This document shows positions 1-6,961 of a DNA stretch of 6,961 bases, piece after piece (positions within the stretch are counted from its first letter, which is position 1; every line of letters starts with the position of its first letter). A program made the position numbers and the translations under genes. This DNA comes from a virus (lineage: Duplodnaviria; Heunggongvirae; Uroviricota; Caudoviricetes): positions 1 through 6,961 of IMG/VR virus record IMGVR_UViG_2744054675_000005, one strand, 5' to 3'. The notes beneath the pieces are model-generated. The model worked only from the letters and a program-made list of their open reading frames with translations, did no database searches and was not told where the DNA came from.

Positions 1-1108
1 CCAGTTGCAGGGAAGAGTATCTGCTATAAGAAAAATCACATACGTAATACCCTTCTGGCATATATGCAGCAACACTTTCCTCATCAGGAGCACATCCGGT
101 ATGATATGCACTAATTTTTGCACCAAAGCTACCATGAATTCCAACGTAGAACTTTCGAGCACCTGAATACGGATAGAAATTAAGTTCAGCTTTTTGAGTT
201 ACAATAAATGCACAAACATCGCTATCATCTCTATTTTCTTCAATCTGAATAGCAAATACAGGACTTTTTGCTGCATCGCAAATGTAAAATAAATATTTGT
301 ATTCGTAATACGTCCTAACAGTTTTAGTAAACAAACTGGTATCAGAGAAAACCACTGAGTCTTCTGATATTATTTTAATCCATGATAAGTCACATCCTGC
401 TGAAATTTCTATTTGCTCATTGAGCACAAAACCGGAAAGAATTTTAATTATGCAAAAATCAATGCCATTTTTCCATAGTGGACGCAGTGCAACAGCTGAG
501 TTTAGAGCATCACTAATAGATTTAAAATTACCATATTCCCCAACTGTTATTGTGAATGCATACCTGGAATTAAATACTGCGGCACTCTCTCCAGAGTTAA
601 TAGCTGCAGATATCATGTCATAATTTGATATAAAATCATTTGGCGTGATTATTTCTGCGTTTTTATTGTGCTGTGTTCTAAGTTTTGAATTTACATAAAC
701 ACTTTTAACTGCAATACGGGAGTCGTCAACAAGTATTTCATTACCCTCTGTTGCTAACTCTTGTCTTAACTGATCCGGGTCATACTTCAGCACATTCGGA
801 AAATAGAACTGCTGCACACCGTACGCATCATAAACAGCCATAGAATGGCCCTGTACAGTAACGAATTTGGCAATCTGTCCGTTATATACCGGATATCCAG
901 CAGCGTTAATGATGATTGGTTGCGAAACAGGAACGTGAGATCCATCTTCGTTCTCTACATAAACCTGAATCTGGTTTTCAGGATTTACCGGGTCAGTGTC
1001 AATTTTACCGATATAAATTTTGCCATTAGCTACGGCTTTAAAAGAACGCGCCATAGTGAAGAGTTGCGAAGGCATCGATACGATCACATTGGCTGTAATG
1101 TCTGTCAT
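1..1108 (-). CDS. Tailspike protein, 5' portion (3' end lies beyond the window start). Conserved P22-type N-terminal head-binding domain followed by a divergent receptor-binding domain.
   Basis: Hand translation of the minus strand from ATG at 1108..1106 gives [113 protein letters not shown]..., which closely matches the P22 gp9 N-terminus as I recall it ([11 protein letters not shown]...[34 protein letters not shown]...[12 protein letters not shown]...NVLKYDPDQ). I scanned this frame triplet by triplet and found no stop codon from 1108 down to position 2. SD GGAG lies 8 nt upstream (complement of 1117..1120). Not in the ORF track, presumably because its stop is outside the window. Confidence 0.85.
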
Positions 1109-1165
1109 TTAATTTGCTCCAGATACAAGGAATCGCCGCAGCATGGCTACGGTGAATTTTGGGCA

Positions 1166-1190
1166 TAAAAAAACCCAGCCGAAGCTGGGT
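1166..1190 (-). terminator. Rho-independent terminator downstream of ant
   Basis: Minus-strand RNA reads ACCCAGC-UUCG-GCUGGGU followed by UUUUUUU: a 7-bp GC-rich stem (1173..1179 with 1184..1190), a UUCG tetraloop, and a U7 tract (plus-strand A run 1166..1172). It lies between the ant stop (1209) and the tailspike start (1108). Confidence 0.7.
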
Positions 1191-1208
1191 CGTTGCGTTG
1201 GTTATCTG

Positions 1209-2111
1209 TCAGTAGTTATGTGCTGAAGGAGGTAATTCTTTATTCTTAAGTCTCATCCATGCGGAAAGATTCGTTGGTCCGTCTGGCTCATTAATATCAA
1301 CATCTCGTGTGTGGTTTATTAAAACGTCTCTCGCCATTCCGATAACATACGAGAATTCATGACCGTAGTCGTAGCATCTGCCGGAATAGTTCGATTGAAT
1401 TTGTTTTAATGCCGGATACAGTTCGCGGAATAATGCCTGTGAACGGTTAGCATAATCCCATAGCCATACAAGGCTGTTTGCTTCTTTTGCAGAAAGCTCG
1501 TTGGTTTTCTTCTCTTGTTTGCCAATGAGCTCACCTTCAAGCACTACCCTGTGGATGTACTCTACTGCTTGCGGTATCTGAGATGCATCAAGCTCTTCAA
1601 TACTTTCCACATTGAAACGCTGATGAATCATTGCATAAGCTTCTGGGTACATTAGATGCTTTTTGCTGACCAGCATATTTACAGCATCACGAAGCGGAGT
1701 CCTGTCATCAACAGATGTTTTCTTACGTGCATTTTCTTCCTTTCCCTTTGTCCAGTAGTCATGCAGCACAGTAAAGCATTCTTCCTGGTACTGAATAAGT
1801 TTATCGCGGATGTCAGCACGAACTTTCTCAGGGTTGATGCTGAACAGCCATCCATTTAACTTCTTCAAAGGAAGGCAGAGTAGCTTACGAAGCTTCCCAT
1901 CAGCGGCAACCATGTTCATATGAACACAGTTGAATTTGCTAATCTGCTTCATGAGTTTTGTTTGCTGCGTTGACCAGCTCATTCCAAGGTTTTCAACGAT
2001 TGGCTTCATCGCAACATATGCAACTCCGGCAGCCATGGCGGTGATAATTTGCTGACCGTTGAATGGTACGTAAGAGGTGTTCACTGCTTCTAAAATTGCT
2101 ATACTATTCAT
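1209..2111 (-). CDS. ant: Antirepressor Ant (300 aa)
   Basis: The ORF track lists 1209..2141, but position 2141 is a TTG. The ATG at 2111..2109 has SD GGAGA (complement of 2121..2125) 9 nt upstream and gives exactly 300 aa beginning [53 protein letters not shown]..., which matches my recollection of P22 Ant (length and N-terminus). The position arc -> ant -> tailspike reproduces P22 immI synteny. Confidence 0.9.
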
Positions 2112-2185
2112 GTTGGTTTTTCTCCAAGGATTTACCGACAACCGAAGCCCTGACTGTTACCGCAGTTGGGGCTTCAACTTTTCAC
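2112..2185 (+). ncRNA. Candidate sar-like antisense RNA covering the ant ribosome-binding site
   Basis: A -10-like TATACT at 2100..2105 (inside the first codons of ant, plus strand) would start a transcript near 2112 that is antisense to the ant SD (2121..2125). It would end at a hairpin (gaagccc 2144..2150 pairs with gggcttc 2169..2175, with an inner actg/cagt stem) followed by the U-rich run aacttttcacttcttt. Size (about 70 nt) and position mirror P22 sar. The -35 is weak (tgttca 2078..2083). Confidence 0.35.
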
Positions 2186-2398
2186 TTCTTTAAAGTGCCT
2201 ACCTTCTACAGTTGCTCTGAGATAAAAATTCTTATCTTTACCGTTTAGTGCTTCCCAAGCATCAACAATGCACTTATTACAGATGTGGACTTCTCGATAA
2301 CCAATAGCTTTCCTGTCAATATTAGTGAACATAACAGCTTCTTTATCTGTCAATGTGGATGCATGACAGAAGTCGCAATCTATATAAGATACCTTCAT
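2174..2398 (-). CDS. Small Cys4 zinc-ribbon protein (74 aa) inserted between arc and ant
   Basis: ORF MKVSYIDCDFCHASTLTDKEAVMFTNIDRKAIGYREVHICNKCIVDAWEALNGKDKNFYLRATVEGRHFKEVKS carries two CxxC pairs (C8/C11 and C40/C43). Its ATG (2398..2396) overlaps the arc stop codon (GTATGA), with a G-rich SD-like stretch (GAGAGGGG) just upstream inside the 3' end of arc. Same strand and operon as arc and ant. Confidence 0.55.
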   Translation of the reverse strand: MKVSYIDCDFCHASTLTDKEAVMFTNIDRKAIGYREVHICNKCIVDAWEALNGKDKNFYLRATVEGRHFKEVKS

Positions 2399-2553
2399 AC
2401 CGTTATCCCCTCTCTCTTCAGGCTGTCCAACACTCGCTTGTAAATCTCAGAGTTAACAGATCGCCCGTTCTCTTCAGCTACCTTGCGCACCAAATCCAAT
2501 ACTTCTTTAGGCCACCGCAAATTGAACTGAGGCATTTTTCTTGCACCTTGCAT
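2395..2553 (-). CDS. arc: Arc repressor (52 aa, ribbon-helix-helix)
   Basis: Hand translation of the minus strand gives MQGARKMPQFNLRWPKEVLDLVRKVAEENGRSVNSEIYKRVLDSLKREGITV, near-identical to P22 Arc as I recall it (MKGMSKMPQFNLRWPREVLDLVRKVAEENGRSVNSEIYQRV...), including the DNA-contacting strand PQFNLRW. SD GGAG sits 6 nt upstream of ATG 2553. Missing from the ORF track because it is shorter than 61 aa. An in-frame upstream ATG at 2574 (MSEMELN-) has no SD and no counterpart in P22 Arc. Confidence 0.85.
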   Translation of the reverse strand: MQGARKMPQFNLRWPKEVLDLVRKVAEENGRSVNSEIYKRVLDSLKREGITV

Positions 2554-2577
2554 ATTCAACTCCATTTCACTCATTGA

Positions 2578-2590
2578 TAGTACCGTACTA
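2578..2590. promoter_or_regulatory. Perfect 13-bp palindrome TAGTAC-C-GTACTA; candidate Mnt-type operator at the Pant start site
   Basis: Positions 2578..2590 form a perfect inverted repeat around a central C. The core ACGGT (read on the minus strand) is shared with the centre of the P22 Mnt operator AGGTCCACGGTGGACCT as I recall it. It sits just downstream of the predicted Pant -10 and just upstream of the predicted Pmnt -35, the arrangement expected for an operator that represses Pant and autoregulates Pmnt. Confidence 0.5.
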
Positions 2591-2593
2591 CTA

Positions 2594-2622
2594 TTGAAAG
2601 CGTACTACTACCGTTCTAGCAT
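2594..2622 (+). promoter_or_regulatory. Candidate Pmnt promoter (-35 TTGAAA, 17-bp spacer, -10 TAGCAT)
   Basis: TTGAAA at 2594..2599 and TAGCAT at 2617..2622, followed by SD AAGGAG (2635..2640) and the GTG start of mnt at 2647. The spacer contains the second copy of the CGTACTACTA repeat (2601..2610; first copy 2584..2593). Confidence 0.4.
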
Positions 2623-2627
2623 GTCAA
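2599..2627 (-). promoter_or_regulatory. Candidate Pant promoter (-35 TTGACA; weak -10 TACGCT), overlapping and divergent from Pmnt
   Basis: The minus strand reads TTGACA (complement of 2622..2627), a 17-bp spacer, then TACGCT (complement of 2599..2604). The consensus -35 matches the P22 Pant layout TTGACA-operator-(-10). The -10 is a poor match, so the exact start site is uncertain. Confidence 0.4.
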
Positions 2628-2646
2628 CAAATAAAAGGAGAACGAC

Positions 2647-2889
2647 GTGGCTAGAAATGATCCACAATTCAACGTAAGAATGCCTGATGAGATAAAACAG
2701 CAACTTACGCATATTGCTGCAACAAATCGCCGCTCGATAAACGCAGAGATTATTTCAGCTATCGAACTATGGATAAAAATTCATAAAGGGCAGCTAATAC
2801 CTTCAAGTAGTCGAATCCTGACAAAGTCTGAGCAAGAGGCGTTTGATGTAGCTATTGATGTGTTAAAACGTGTAAGAGATGGAGGATAA
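2647..2889 (+). CDS. mnt: Mnt-like repressor (80 aa, ribbon-helix-helix, maintenance-of-lysogeny type)
   Basis: GTG start with SD AAGGAG 6 nt upstream. The protein MARNDPQFNVRMPDEIKQQLTHIAATNRRSINAEIISAIELWIKIHKGQL... resembles P22 Mnt (MARDDPHFNFRMPMEVREKL...ANGRSMNSELL...) as I recall it. Divergent from arc across a short shared control region, as in P22. Confidence 0.85.
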   Translation: MARNDPQFNVRMPDEIKQQLTHIAATNRRSINAEIISAIELWIKIHKGQLIPSSSRILTKSEQEAFDVAIDVLKRVRDGG

Positions 2890-2891
2890 CC

Positions 2892-3125
2892 ATGGAGCAA
2901 CAACAAGGGTCGCCATTATCATTGATTATTATGGTGATTTTTTTCGTTTTTATCTTTTTTATACCTGCGTTAAAAATATCCAAAAAGGCCGGTTTTGACT
3001 GGAAGATGGCTGTATGTTTAACAATCCCTGGCTTTAACGTGGTGGCGTGGCTCGCGCTTGCGTTCATGGATTGGCCAATTCACAAGTATCTACCAAAAGA
3101 TGTGAATCGTAAGGATGCAAAATGA
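2892..3125 (+). CDS. Small two-helix inner-membrane protein (77 aa), translationally coupled to mnt; function unknown, superinfection-exclusion candidate
   Basis: ATG at 2892 lies 2 nt after the mnt stop codon, with SD GGAGGA (2881..2886) inside the 3' end of mnt. The protein MEQQQGSPLSLIIMVIFFVFIFFIPALKISKKAGFDWKMAVCLTIPGFNVVAWLALAFMDWPIHKYLPKDVNRKDAK has two hydrophobic segments separated by a short basic loop. The region is AT-rich. Confidence 0.6.
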   Translation: MEQQQGSPLSLIIMVIFFVFIFFIPALKISKKAGFDWKMAVCLTIPGFNVVAWLALAFMDWPIHKYLPKDVNRKDAK

Positions 3126-3331
3126 ATAAAAAACAGCTTATTAAGTCAAAAACGTCAAGCAAGGAAGAATTAGAGAAGGAGCTAAACTCCCTGAAATATG
3201 CTCTGTGTCTGGTTTACTCAAGACTGCCAATGGAAGATAAAAACGCCATTTACAATGAAATGATTAGCAGCCTTGATTTTAACGATAGAGACCTAGCATC
3301 CCACCTCAACAGCTTCCGCGTCCCTGAGTAA
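3122..3331 (+). CDS. Hypothetical protein (69 aa), translationally coupled to the upstream membrane-protein gene
   Basis: Its ATG overlaps the upstream stop (ATGA at 3122..3125), with SD AAGGA about 7 nt upstream. The protein MNKKQLIKSKTSSKEELEKELNSLKYALCLVYSRLPMEDKNAIYNEMISSLDFNDRDLASHLNSFRVPE is charged and predicted helical. I recognise no family. Confidence 0.5.
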   Translation: MNKKQLIKSKTSSKEELEKELNSLKYALCLVYSRLPMEDKNAIYNEMISSLDFNDRDLASHLNSFRVPE

Positions 3332-3491
3332 TTCTGTTGCGGATTTGCTTCTTGCGGTGGTTTAAGCTGGAGAGCTTGGCTTCTGCTTCTGATATTTGCG
3401 CATCTAGATCTTTAAGCTCAAGATCTGAAAGTCGCTGGTCAAGCAGGGTTTGATTCAACTCAATGTTGTTCAGGCGTTCTTCTATGGTCAT
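3306..3491 (-). CDS. Hypothetical coiled-coil protein (61 aa), convergent with and overlapping the 3' end of the 69-aa ORF
   Basis: Strong SD on the minus strand (TAAGGAG, then 5 nt, then ATG at 3491..3489). The protein MTIEERLNNIELNQTLLDQRLSDLELKDLDAQISEAEAKLSSLNHRKKQIRNRITQGRGSC has a heptad-like Leu/Ile pattern. Its 3' end overlaps 3122..3331 by 26 nt on the opposite strand. Its start is only about 15 nt downstream of the terminator hairpin, so it has no obvious promoter of its own. Confidence 0.4.
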   Translation of the reverse strand: MTIEERLNNIELNQTLLDQRLSDLELKDLDAQISEAEAKLSSLNHRKKQIRNRITQGRGSC

Positions 3492-3504
3492 GATTTCTCC
3501 TTAT

Positions 3505-3536
3505 AAAAAACCCACCTGACGGTGGGTTTCATTTCT
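3505..3536. terminator. Bidirectional rho-independent terminator between the lipoprotein gene and the mnt-side accessory genes
   Basis: Stem cccacc (3511..3516) pairs with ggtggg (3521..3526) around loop tgac, extendable to 9 bp by A/T pairs. On the minus strand it is followed by UUUUUU-AU; on the plus strand by UUUCAUUUCUU. Confidence 0.65.
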
Positions 3537-3955
3537 TAATCTTGCTTCGTGGAAGGTATAAGAGATGCGTTTGCCTCTTTTGGCTTCAAGGTATACATCC
3601 CACCATTAAATGGATCAACAGCAAGCCAACCAATTAACCCACCAAACACAAGGTTTCCACCAATATACCAACCATTAGCATTGGCTTTGATTGGCAGGGT
3701 AACTGGTTCGTACCCATCCTTTTCCATAGTGATCTGGTAGCTCTTTTTGCCAAAATAACTACCATCTGACTTGGCAAGAGTTACTCCTTGTGGAGTTTTA
3801 CCTTGCGCAACAATCACACCTGATTCATCTTTTACCTTAAAGCTCGCACCAGAAGGATTGCTGTTCACTTGCACAAGTTGCGTTTCATCACCAACAATAG
3901 TTGCGCACCCAGATAACATGATAGCGCCAGCAACGACGCTAATAATCCTCTTCAT
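3536..3955 (-). CDS. Lipoprotein (139 aa from MKRIIS; the alternative ATG at 3967 adds MEID) with a PEGA-like beta domain and a Gly-rich C-terminal segment; sits in the sieA-equivalent position
   Basis: Signal peptide with lipobox MKRIISVVAGAIMLSG|C. The mature part SNPSGASFKVKDESGVIVAQGKTPQGVTL...YQITMEKDGYEPVTLPI fits the PEGA-domain pattern (P-x-G-A ... G-x-TP ... K-x-GY). C-terminal GWYIGGNLVFGGLIGWLAVDPFNGGMY. Located directly downstream of the large ejection-protein gene on the same strand. Confidence 0.8.
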   Translation of the reverse strand: MKRIISVVAGAIMLSGCATIVGDETQLVQVNSNPSGASFKVKDESGVIVAQGKTPQGVTLAKSDGSYFGKKSYQITMEKDGYEPVTLPIKANANGWYIGGNLVFGGLIGWLAVDPFNGGMYTLKPKEANASLIPSTKQD

Positions 3956-4050
3956 ATCAATTTCCATATCTAAAAAACCGGAAACATCCTAATGACAAAC
4001 TATTCAAATGTGAAGCACGAGATAAGATCAATCCATCCGTGGACGACTAA

Positions 4051-6162
4051 TTACTCCTGTGTCATTCCGCTTAGCGATGCCACAATCCCAGCCCTCGACA
4101 AACGCTGGAACTCTTCGTTTCCTAGTGCATCGCGAATTGCTTTTACGGCGGCCTTATTTGCCATAAATCTGCGTTCCGCCGCCGCTAATGCTTCTTTACT
4201 TCCGCCAGCTCTTACTGCTTTCGTGGCTTCCTGAACTGCTTTCTCTATCGCATATCGGCCGCTACGCGTGGTGGCAATTTTAGATACAGCACCTTTTAAC
4301 CCGGCGCCAACTAAAGCACCTGCGGCAGCGCCTGCAATGCCCCCTCCTGCTCCACCAACAATGGCACCTGATGTTGAGTTGGCAATTGCATTTAACACTG
4401 TTGATGTGACGTTGGATAAACCGGCATCCAGATCGCGTAGTACATTGGCAGTTCTCCCTGTTCTTTCAATATACTGCTGAGGTTTCACTGCTGCTCTTGC
4501 AAGAGTGCCATATGCATCAGCAATTCTTCCGAGTTCTGAGGAATATCTGCTAATGGCTTTTACATTTTGTGGGGTAAGTATCCCTGCGATATGGTTAATT
4601 CCTGCTGCATCAGCTTTGCCACCACGTACACCATGCGAGATAGCATCTTGCAACATTGATGATATAGCAGGAACACGCTCTGATTCTGGCAGCGCGCGGA
4701 TCATAGAATGGAACCCAGCAGGACCATTAAGACCTTTAGCTGACGATGATTGAAGGGATTTTACTCCATTCGTAATCAGTGCATCTGTTGCCAAATCACG
4801 CCCGAAAACAGACTCTGCACTCTCTTGTGCTGATAACCTCGCTTTAGACAGATCATTAGCTTTCTGCCAGTCATCAAGAAATCCGCCGTTTTCCGCCATT
4901 GTGCGCATATCATCAGTAATTGCCCGGCGTATTTCCCCTGCTCTCCTTGCCGCATTTGCCTCTCCGCTACGCTTATATTTTTGCTCCGCATCAGCAAATT
5001 TCGCTCTCCATGCTTTCATGCCATCAAATGTTACTCCACCTTGATTGTTTGCCTGAACAAACTGTTTCATTTCAGGAGTAAGCGGTATGCCAGCAGATCG
5101 CTCTGCCTGAATAACGGCATTACCATTTAGCATTCTTGCTTTTTGATTTGGCATTGTTGACCGCACGTCATCCCATGCCGCGCGCTCGGCATCCTTCATC
5201 TGATCAAGATTTTGAAGAATCCTTTGTTTTATAGCCGCACTTTTTTCTGATGCCGTTCCAGATGCGGCCCCAAATTCATCAAGGTTTCGACTTAACTTTG
5301 ATGATATTTCGTTAAATGCTGCCTGATGGGCGTCCTGAACAATTCCTGGTGTTGATGCCAATGCGCCTTCGGCTTGTGCAATTCCACGACTTCCAGATCG
5401 CATTCCTGGTGTTAATGCGTTTATATCAATTCCAGCAGACTCAGCCGCTTTTGCTACATCTTCGGACACATTAGCGGCCTGACTGGCAATTGACTGACGC
5501 CCAGCACCTGACTTTGCCATCCTGGAAACATCATTAGCAGAATTCAGTGCTGCACCACCAAGAGCCTGTGAAACCCTTGGCGCAATAACGCGCCCGACAC
5601 CTGAAAGAACGCCTTGAGCACCAATATTGATACCACCGTTAATGGCAGCATTTTGTGCAAAGTCGCCCTCCTGATTTGCAGCATCAGCAAGAGAACCTGC
5701 AATCATGTTTCCTGCGGAACCGATATCTCCAGCGAGCTTTGCTGGCGCTCCAGCAGCTTTTGCCGCTGTGCCAATTGGCAGGAGATACCCACCAATTGTT
5801 TCACCGGCTTGCGCATAAGGGTCTGTCGGTCGATCGACTGGACGATAGACATCATCCAAAACCTTGGGGCCACCAAGCCCCTGGCTGATTGCATTAATCA
5901 GACTTGCGCCACCCTGCAATACGTCAAATGGTATGTTTACCAGACCACGGCCAGCCTGTTCTGCAATTTGCCCTGCGCTTTGACCACCAGTGAGCCAGTC
6001 AGTGGCTTTTCCTACCAGAGATTGTTCTTCTGGCTGCGATTGGTTTTGAGTGGATTGATCACCAGAAGACAGCATCTGAGCAATGCGACGTGCTCCCTCA
6101 GTATCACCGGCAGCATCAGCATTCCTTAACGCCGTCATCAACTGTTCGCGACTATAGGCCAT
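4051..6162 (-). CDS. Virion ejection (DNA-transfer) protein, P22 gp16-like by position (703 aa)
   Basis: Long GC-rich ORF with SD GGAGGG. Its start is coupled to the upstream ORF through a TAATG stop/start overlap at 6160..6164. It is the last large gene before the sieA/mnt region, which is where gene 16 sits in P22. The protein is Ala/Gly/Gln-rich and has a glycine-zipper-like hydrophobic stretch [27 protein letters not shown] (about 4288..4368). Function is assigned by synteny and composition only. Confidence 0.7.
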
Positions 6163-6961
6163 TACTGCCCTCCGAGATATTTATTAATCAGGTCATCATC
6201 AGAAAGCTGCTGTTGAGACGGTTGTATGTCCTTCCCGTATTTCTGTTGCATACGTTTCTGAGCCATCTCAGTGGTTTTTATGATTGTTTTGATAGCTGCT
6301 CTGGCTGATTTTTCAGACTGATTTGGGGACAAACTACCAATAGCATCCATTACCTTTTGCCCCTCGGCATTACTTAAAGCCCCCATCCCTTTCATCTGCT
6401 GAATGCCAGATAAGAATCCCTGAGATTTCAGTGTGTCAACCAGAGTTTCTGTATCAGCAGCCTCTGTTCCTGGAATGAATCTACTCGATAGTGGGTTTAG
6501 GTTTGTTCCGAAATATCCAGTGAATCCTGGGCTATTAAGAACTTTTGTAGCCGTCTCTATCGTTCTGGAAAGATTATCCATTCCAGAGTTGTACGCATCA
6601 GCCTTATCTCGCTTTGCCTGCTCCATAGCTTGCTGATTCTGCAATCTCTTGTCATGCAATTCAGCAAGTTTTAAGGCATTAGTTTCATTTGCGATGAGTC
6701 TGTCGTATTTCTTGTCCTCTAATTCCATTCGACGAAGATTGACATTTTGTTGCGCAATATTGTTGCTTGCCCACCCTCTGGCATTTGTCATGTCATTATT
6801 GCGGATTGTTTCGTTAATTCTTTGCTGCTCCTGCTGGCGACCAACCATCTTATCCTGATAATCCAGCATTTTATCCGGACCAACAGCCCCTAGCGTCATA
6901 GTAGTCAGCATGTGTGATAGCTGCTCTGGATTCTGGATACCTGTCTGAATCATCCAGTCAG
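6162..6961 (-). CDS. Virion ejection protein, P22 gp20-like by position (C-terminal portion; 5' end beyond the window)
   Basis: The reading frame stays open to the window edge (codons upstream of the listed Met at 6953 are not stops). Gln/Asn-rich with coiled-coil-like segments; the stop overlaps the start of the 703-aa gene. Assigned by synteny only. Confidence 0.6.

Follow-up and report, generated by a model that had tools for sequence, protein, structure and literature searches.

The small gene orf61, which lies in the immI region of a P22-like prophage, appears on balance to be a coiled-coil ORFan that is fed by antiterminated late transcripts reading through a terminator hairpin, and that would sit nested, in antisense, inside the transcription unit driven by Pmnt. 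Judged by their substitution patterns, orf61 and its convergent partner orf69 are genuine protein-coding genes under purifying selection rather than annotation noise. They are uncharacterised cargo genes of the hypervariable P22-like ant moron, both already annotated as hypothetical proteins.

The DNA analysed, hereafter the window, is the whole 6,961-nucleotide stretch at positions 1 to 6,961 of virus record IMGVR_UViG_2744054675_000005. It is the immI or "ant moron" region of a P22-like (Lederbergvirus) prophage, both by location, between homologues of gene 16 and gene 9, and by content, with mnt, arc, ant and sar arranged as in P22. Its features are listed below.

Start at 1107, minus strand: tailspike gene, N-terminus.
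About 2111 to 1209, minus strand: ant (Pfam P22_AR_N/P22_AR_C), followed by a terminator.
2112..2179: sar RNA (Rfam, 97.4 bits).
Between arc and ant, minus strand: a 74-aa ORF.
2574..2395, minus strand: arc (Pfam Arc match).
2594..2622, plus strand: candidate Pmnt (TTGAAA-17-TAGCAT) between arc and mnt, a consensus match only.
2647..2889, plus strand: mnt, an Arc/Mnt family repressor of 80 aa (PF03869, E 1.8e-12; also so annotated in Salmonella phage vB_SemP_Emek, hereafter Emek).
2892..3125, plus strand: orf77, a small hydrophobic membrane-type protein, between mnt and orf69 (phrog_32536).
3122..3331, plus strand: orf69, 69 aa, last gene of the mnt-orf77-orf69 cassette (PHROG 16466).
3306..3491, minus strand: orf61, 61 aa, with an ATG start (ORF call; phrog_7586).
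3306..3331, both strands: dual-coding overlap of 26 nt between the C-termini of orf61 (..ITQGRGSC*) and orf69 (..NSFRVPE*).
3406..3411 and 3421..3426: two AGATCT sites within the imperfect palindrome AGATCTT-N7-AAGATCT.
3497..3503, minus strand: Shine-Dalgarno sequence TAAGGAG of orf61, 5 nt before the ATG.
3508..3529, both strands: G+C-rich hairpin, AAACCCACC-TGAC-GGTGGGTTT, annotated as a terminator in Emek and epsilon34.
3536..3967, minus strand: lipoprotein gene, 143 aa, upstream of the hairpin, homologue of epsilon34 gene 15.
3986..4014, minus strand: promoter-like site (TTCACA-17-TAGGAT) upstream of the lipoprotein gene, a consensus match only.
6162..4051, minus strand: gp16-like ejection protein, 703 aa (ORF call).
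6953..6162, minus strand: gp20-like ORF with a P22 injectosome translocase domain (Pfam, Inj_translocase).

Homologues of the gp16-like protein in related loci are assigned to PF26808 (Phage_P22_gp16), and the candidate Pmnt occupies the position that Pmnt has in P22 and epsilon34. From 2600 to 3533 the window is 99.6% identical to Emek, in which mnt, orf77, orf69, orf61 and a rho-independent terminator are annotated at the same place. The segment 3505..4000 matches phage epsilon34, in which gene 15, the lipoprotein gene, and this hairpin directly adjoin mnt. The window thus has about 620 bp more than epsilon34, an insertion made up of orf77, orf69 and orf61 and located between the body of mnt and the old mnt 3' end with its terminator. 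The first of these genes is missing from Kapi1, L006 and L114, in which orf69 directly follows mnt. On the other side of the hairpin, the true start of the lipoprotein gene is probably the ATG at 3955, the phrog_6823 alignment beginning at residue 5; the promoter-like site at 3986..4014 and the hairpin would together make this gene a classical promoter-gene-terminator moron.

Both small genes match a PHROG over their full length: orf61 matches PHROG 7586 (E 3.3e-44, residues 1-61 of 61) and orf69 matches PHROG 16466 (E 1.7e-50, residues 1-69 of 69), two families of unknown function. The former is annotated as a hypothetical protein in Emek (orf61), in Kapi1 (Kapi1_061) and, as WP_000151196.1, in RefSeq E. 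coli genomes; orf69 likewise has hypothetical-protein entries in Emek, Kapi1 and RefSeq E. coli genomes. When orf61 was set against homologues from Serratia, Salmonella, E. coli and metagenomes that are 72-89% identical to it in nucleotides, dN/dS came to about 0.07-0.27, dS being saturated or nearly so; these ratios are approximate because two of the NG86 dS estimates are undefined. Not a single stop codon interrupts the frame in 54 distinct coding sequences, and in the 52 codons outside the orf69 overlap the variable sites are distributed 28/17/46 over the three codon positions. The other five frames contain 11-54 stops or have a higher dN/dS. For orf69, dN/dS is 0.03-0.13 and the variable sites are distributed 11/9/44.

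The preliminary description, a reading of the sequence alone, had credited orf61 with one of the best Shine-Dalgarno sequences of the window, and this is borne out: the predicted pairing of TAAGGAG with the 3' end of 16S rRNA (-9.3 kcal/mol) ranks joint third among the 291 ATGs of the window. Whatever the upstream context, a Shine-Dalgarno-like sequence is retained 5-8 nt ahead of the ATG. Versions of 89-92 aa, which PGAP names "hemolysin XhlA family protein", have an N-terminal extension that is tied to one upstream context and lies antisense to a signal-peptide gene. On this comparison of contexts the 61-aa start is the right one and the longer versions are context artefacts.

AlphaFold2 predicts the orf61 product to be one continuous helix spanning residues 3-59 (pLDDT 94). 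Its N-terminal half is conserved, acidic and leucine-rich (EERLxxIELNQTLLDQRLSDLELKDLD), its tail is variable and basic, and the protein is hydrophilic along its whole length. Judging from this model, the product most likely works by forming a coiled-coil oligomer or by binding a helical partner. For the orf69 product the prediction consists of three short helices (pLDDT 78).

The convergent overlap of 26 nt (3306..3331) that had been proposed between the two genes is exactly that in the window, and it is a constant feature of the pair: it measures 26 nt in all 83 fetched loci that carry orf69, from E. coli and Salmonella to Serratia, a set that includes 39 loci retrieved using orf69 itself as the query, plus the Serratia locus. 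At its other end, orf69 starts within the stop codon of orf77 (ATGA). Mean nucleotide identity is 87.9% in the overlap versus 76.5% and 81.7% in the single-coding flanks, and 7 of the 26 overlap columns are variable, against 81 of 160 in the part belonging to orf61 only. The overlap is thus more conserved than either flank, a pattern that dual coding is expected to give.

A pair of AGATCT sites does exist inside orf61, as had been noted; it had been placed at about 3408..3429 with the sites 10 bp apart, whereas it spans 3406..3426, with 15 bp from start to start and 9 bp between the sites. These are the only AGATCT sites of the window, and two is the number expected by chance (1.85). The palindrome encodes S-D-L-E-L-K-D-L-D, each GATCT motif being an Asp-Leu codon pair, and diverged homologues with the same amino acids lose one or both sites through synonymous Leu codons. 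A signal function of the AGATCT/GATC pair, related to Dam or to restriction, was rejected on account of the chance-level count and the loss of sites in diverged homologues, and I treat the pair as incidental, a by-product, as far as the codons tell, of the Asp-Leu pairs.

How orf61 is expressed depends on the hairpin that precedes it. The base of the hairpin is 16 nt from the ATG, in keeping with the earlier estimate of about 15 nt. Its predicted folding energy is -16.2 kcal/mol as minus-strand RNA and -14.2 kcal/mol as plus-strand RNA, and none of 200 shuffled sequences folded as well in either orientation. On the minus strand the stem is followed by T6 (complement of 3505..3510) and on the plus strand by TTTCATTTCTT (3527..3537). 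The arrangement A6-CCCACC-TGAC-GGTGGG-TTT is that of a bidirectional intrinsic terminator as far as sequence goes, and the minus-strand tail, TTTTTT, is the more canonical of the two. A terminator scan scored the hairpin on the plus strand only, because the scan extends the stem into the A/T tracts. In epsilon34 and P22 the left arm of the hairpin encodes the last mnt codons and the stop (KKPT*/KKTT*). Wherever it occurs the hairpin lies at the end of the mnt-strand unit, even where another mnt-strand gene separates it from orf61, and it is found beside at least six different upstream genes. It has a weak match to the terminator end of sroH only. At the convergent junction of P22-like ant morons the hairpin is most likely a shared bidirectional terminator, one that most likely halts late-strand transcripts that are not antiterminated as well as bringing the Pmnt transcript to its end.

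On the plus strand there is no terminator after the orf69 stop (3331) until the hairpin itself (3508..3529). Plus-strand transcripts coming from the mnt side would traverse orf61 (186 nt) antisense along its whole length before ending at the hairpin, so that orf61 would be nested antisense in the Pmnt unit. Turning to the strand of orf61 itself, a consensus scan found no promoter of its own in the window, either between hairpin and ATG or in the 250 nt upstream, and in 33 of 36 contexts the 250 nt upstream likewise lacked a sigma-70-like site; the scan is a crude consensus match that weak or non-canonical promoters could escape. Promoter-like sites are in fact rarer upstream of orf61 than at the background rate. 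Nor did the terminator scan find a minus-strand terminator just after 3306, the next being a weak site at 2720..2697, antisense of mnt. By these scans the gene has neither the promoter nor the terminator of its own that define a strict moron, and read-through from upstream appears the most plausible feed.

The preliminary description had left a choice: either read-through from the lipoprotein gene feeds orf61, or the hairpin terminates mainly plus-strand transcription. The first limb is favoured by the lack of a promoter-like site in 33 of the 36 contexts and by the late orientation of the gene, but the choice itself falls away, since the hairpin has a bidirectional anatomy and is the shared terminator of the junction, and the two alternatives are therefore not exclusive.

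The most economical scheme for the expression of orf61, which treats it as a passenger gene, is as follows. In P22, polymerase that initiates at PLate passes through the ant moron to the tailspike gene (PMC2629481, citing Adams et al. 1985), and late transcription in P22-like phages is antiterminated by Q/gp23 (PMC2629481, PMC8022706). A late polymerase modified by this type of antitermination would read through the hairpin on its way to the tailspike gene, and orf61 would then be made. In the prophage state, the hairpin would halt ordinary transcripts of the late strand, for example those of the lipoprotein moron, and orf61 would be silenced further by convergent transcription from Pmnt and the resulting complementary RNA. 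Late in lytic growth the interference would run the other way. The mutual antisense interference between the mnt-side and late-strand cassettes suggested by the preliminary description is plausible from this layout. Its reach would far exceed 26 nt, since a transcript from Pmnt has all of orf61 to traverse on the way to the hairpin, and the interference would be generic to the region, because the late transcripts of P22 are antisense to mnt as well.

Published RNA-seq of a Kapi1 lysogen is relevant here, the Kapi1 prophage carrying the same orf61/orf69 pair. In that study (PMC12922286) mnt was not detected, so that antisense RNA driven by Pmnt may be weak in Kapi1 lysogens, and neither Kapi1_061 nor Kapi1_062 is in the list of undetected genes. 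There may thus be some orf61 signal in Kapi1 lysogenic cultures, which also contain spontaneously induced cells.

The distribution of the two genes was examined in 111 fetched loci, in 109 of which a marker gene was detectable. In these 109 loci orf61 lies between gene 16 and mnt on the late strand; its orientation is that of ant (103 loci), of the tailspike gene (99) and of gene 16 (32), and is opposite to that of mnt (91). Upstream, homology ends at the Shine-Dalgarno sequence; what lies further up differs among at least 10 unrelated contexts, which are not fully independent as evolutionary events. A conserved promoter owned by the gene is therefore impossible. The contexts fall into two classes. 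In one, the Shine-Dalgarno sequence is preceded by the hairpin with its T6 tract, and the hairpin in turn by at least six different genes. In the other, a divergent mnt-strand gene has its start codon only 25-30 nt from the orf61 ATG; these divergent genes encode SieA homologues, lipoproteins and small membrane or secreted proteins. On the downstream side, mosaic breakpoints are located at the orf61 stop codon, slightly past it, or within the last few orf61 codons, and those slightly past the stop leave just the C-terminal codons of orf69. The latter gene was never seen without an intact convergent orf61 in the 83 loci that carry it, while orf61 occurs without orf69, and intact, in about 27 fetched loci. 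About 240 of 5,426 complete E. coli genomes match part of 3100..3540, many of them in the hairpin only, and 74 of these contain at least 80% of the segment. Named members of the orf61 family come from E. coli, E. albertii, E. marmotae, Salmonella and Serratia; a scan of one genome per species (GTDB) gave no confirmed match.

Several other explanations of these data can be considered. One possibility, which I regard as unlikely, is that orf61 is an independently expressed moron gene, transcribed in lysogens or in a carrier state from a weak or non-canonical promoter that lies in the 3' part of the preceding gene or still further up, the hairpin acting mainly on the plus strand or serving as a stabilising 5' structure. 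There is precedent for morons of P22-like phages having weak, eroded or distant promoters, for example that of pid, which in P22 lies 174 nt upstream of the start codon and is weak (PMC8835761); the plus-strand-only score of the hairpin in the terminator scan, and the omission of Kapi1_061 from the genes listed as undetected in Kapi1 lysogens (PMC12922286), point the same way. Such a promoter would, however, have to be reconciled with homology that stops at the Shine-Dalgarno sequence in front of at least 10 differing contexts, with promoter-like sites below background, with an orientation that is invariably that of the late operon, and with the hairpin and T6 that stand between any upstream promoter and the Shine-Dalgarno sequence in the window and in 16 other context variants. 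A different view, and a very doubtful one, takes orf61 for an accidental antisense ORF and the conserved element for a plus-strand leader, promoter or RNA that serves the mnt-strand moron genes (sieA, lipoproteins) found next to it in many phages. It draws on the mnt-strand genes that start 25-30 nt beyond the orf61 ATG in most diverged loci and on P22, whose annotated sieA promoter is inside the 5' end of a late-strand ORF at the equivalent position. Against it, the orf61 frame has the pattern of a protein, with dominant third-position variation, a dN/dS of about 0.1-0.2 and no stops, whereas all frames antisense to it carry stops; the window has no plus-strand gene after orf61; and antisense promoter-like matches are confined to a subset of near-identical loci. 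A structured plus-strand RNA opposite orf61 was likewise rejected, since plus-strand folding is not unusual (z -1.56) and comes mostly from the hairpin; on the minus strand the folding z-score at orf61, hairpin included, is -3.3.

The remaining explanations concern the relationship between the two proteins. They could form a functional pair of interacting proteins, an antagonist with its neutraliser or a lysogenic/lytic toggle, the overlap keeping them linked. The invariable presence of an intact orf61 beside orf69, also in the 39 loci found with orf69 as the query, the overlap of constant length from E. coli and Salmonella to Serratia, and the membership of the genes in oppositely regulated transcription units are what such a pair would look like. 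Yet orf61 does not need orf69, because it is intact in the roughly 27 loci that lack it, and the linkage in the other direction is in part a constraint of the layout, orf69 having its stop codon within orf61; moreover, neither protein has a toxin-antitoxin or defence match above noise in PADLOC, Pfam or NCBIfam. I consider a pair of this kind improbable. A long shot is an elaborated version in which orf69 would be made together with Mnt in the lysogen and orf61 only from antiterminated late transcripts, the two silencing each other by way of fully complementary transcripts. During lytic growth the helix of orf61 would target a partner from the lysogeny side, for example orf69 or Mnt at its coiled-coil tetramerisation domain, and thereby commit the immI switch; if true, this would add a new layer of control to the classic immI circuit of P22. 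Expression of orf61 by antiterminated late read-through, in antisense to the Pmnt unit, is the reading retained below.

Searches for a function met with coiled-coil noise or PHROGs of unknown function in Pfam, PHROGs, PADLOC and NCBIfam. A sequence profile search of the PDB returned only generic coiled coils such as HY5, KCNQ1 and M protein, relatives of orf61 turned up only within its own narrow family among the 1.84 billion representative proteins searched by profile, and Foldseek gave no match for orf69 against the PDB and none for orf61 against BFVD. Both proteins are ORFans, and the literature search found no paper that names either of them by accession. The XhlA family (PF10779) shares with orf61 a short N-terminal coiled-coil segment, the basis of a weak profile match. 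In XhlA proteins the coiled coil is followed by a C-terminal transmembrane segment. Membership of orf61 was rejected: the match scores 14.1 bits (E 0.056) versus a gathering threshold of 34.7, there is no NCBIfam match, and orf61 is a hydrophilic protein without a membrane segment, predicted to form one helix from residue 3 to 59 with a basic C-terminus. A type I toxin-antitoxin system with convergent 3' overlap, of the txpA/RatA type, is defined by a small hydrophobic toxin peptide and a non-coding antisense RNA; it was discarded, both partners here being hydrophilic helical proteins under purifying selection, with no PADLOC match above noise. Two genes of P22 were also dismissed as counterparts: pid as a positional analogue, its transcription start site being elsewhere in P22 (nt 40,880 of NC_002371.2; PMC8835761), and orf59a as a homologue of orf69, with which it has no similarity.

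The closest known arrangement is the ant moron of P22 and epsilon34 (Villafane et al. 2008, PMC2629481). As in the window, it lies between homologues of gene 16 and gene 9, has a core of mnt, arc, sar and ant, with mnt convergent to the late strand and the same hairpin at the junction, carries small genes of unknown function beside mnt, and is traversed by PLate transcription on the way to the tailspike gene. Unlike the window, P22 and epsilon34 lack orf77, orf69 and orf61; in their place P22 carries orf59a, sieA and a 121-aa late-strand ORF that is unannotated. The same genes as those of the window are present in Emek (orf69 and orf61) and in Kapi1 (Kapi1_062 and Kapi1_061), with 98-100% amino-acid identity and the same 26-nt overlap, but the late-strand genes upstream of the hairpin are different in Emek, and Kapi1 lacks both orf77 and the hairpin. 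The Kapi1 orf61 is annotated with a 31-residue N-terminal extension, probably spurious because it is context-specific and antisense to a signal-peptide gene. Complementary transcripts of convergent units are known in immI from sar and ant of P22, and the window has sar too. However, sar is a dedicated non-coding RNA of 68 nt with its own promoter and terminator, whereas in orf61/orf69 both strands are protein-coding and no dedicated antisense RNA is evident.

These results settle a few points of annotation: both small ORFs are genuine, the 61-aa start is correct, and the hairpin is a shared junction terminator. What is modestly new is the picture of orf61 as an autonomous late-strand ORFan that would be nested antisense in the mnt unit, the finding that orf69 never occurs without orf61, and the assignment of the hairpin to the junction rather than to one gene. 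As it stands, this is a tidy yet ordinary case of mosaic prophage cargo, in which orf61 is a widespread ORFan. A role of orf61 in the immI switch is conceivable, and a textbook regulatory region would gain a component if the product were shown to act on that switch or on the exclusion genes nearby.

Upstream of orf61, the 61-aa ORF of the late strand, lies a lipoprotein gene, from which it is separated by a G+C-rich hairpin read as a bidirectional terminator. The lipoprotein gene and its promoter-like site map as follows.

3536..3967, minus: lipoprotein gene, 143 aa, homologue of epsilon34 gene 15
3986..4014, minus: promoter-like site before the lipoprotein gene

A promoter-like site in front and a hairpin behind is the classical moron layout. 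The lipoprotein gives a weak match to the PEGA domain, and PGAP names it transthyretin-like/peptidase-associated in other genomes. The start annotated for this gene, at 3967, probably lies 12 nt upstream of the true one, since the alignment to the PHROG profile begins at residue 5. The hairpin sequence alone (42-46 nt) recurs outside this context in many E. coli genomes, with matches on E. coli chromosomes, which suggests that it is a terminator or a recombination joint widely common to prophages; in several of these genomes it is found under genes annotated as YafO-family toxins.

P22 has a slot of the same kind as that of orf61, likewise occupied by an ORF on the late strand that borders directly on the start of sieA.

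L070 (P22, BK000583) 2350..2727, record about 13849..14226, plus: late-strand ORF of about 121 aa, unannotated in this record
L059 2372..2737: further occurrence of the P22-type late-strand ORF

In BK000583 this ORF has sieA on one side and the terminator annotated for mnt on the other. The product starts with MKKVNIGNVPKML and contains HECAH, an HExxH-like motif; it is probably the 'hkcC' named by Villafane et al. 2008 (PMC2629481).

Three further elements were located downstream on the ant side of the window.

2174..2398, minus: Cys-rich ORF, 74 aa (CDFC...CNKC), between arc and ant
2112..2179, plus: canonical sar antisense RNA (Rfam RF00262, 97.4 bits)
1160..1185, minus: strong hairpin resembling a terminator, CCCAGCTTCGGCTGGG with T7 after it

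The start of the Cys-rich ORF overlaps the arc stop, and the sar RNA overlaps the start region of ant. P22 has no gene at the position of the Cys-rich ORF, where it carries instead sar and the ant leader. The counterpart in phage Emek is orf73. No PHROG or Pfam family was found for the 74-aa product, which gave only a weak ClpX zinc-finger-like match. The hairpin at 1160..1185, which follows the stop of ant and precedes the start of the tailspike gene, is the counterpart of the P22 ant terminator, which gates tailspike expression.

Outside its standard setting, orf61 was met in two forms. P0040, a 58-aa protein of E. coli, is a natural fusion of residues 1-28 of orf61 with the C-terminus of Ant, indicating a deletion that brought together orf61 and the 3' end of ant, both on one strand. 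The other form is an orf61 beside gene 16 in prophages without detectable mnt, namely L044 (3161..4299), which has at the mnt position a 213-aa ORF that by eye resembles a cI-type repressor, and L111 (2692..4668), which has a SocA_Panacea-domain gene nearby. Its presence in these prophages means that orf61 is not strictly tied to immI.
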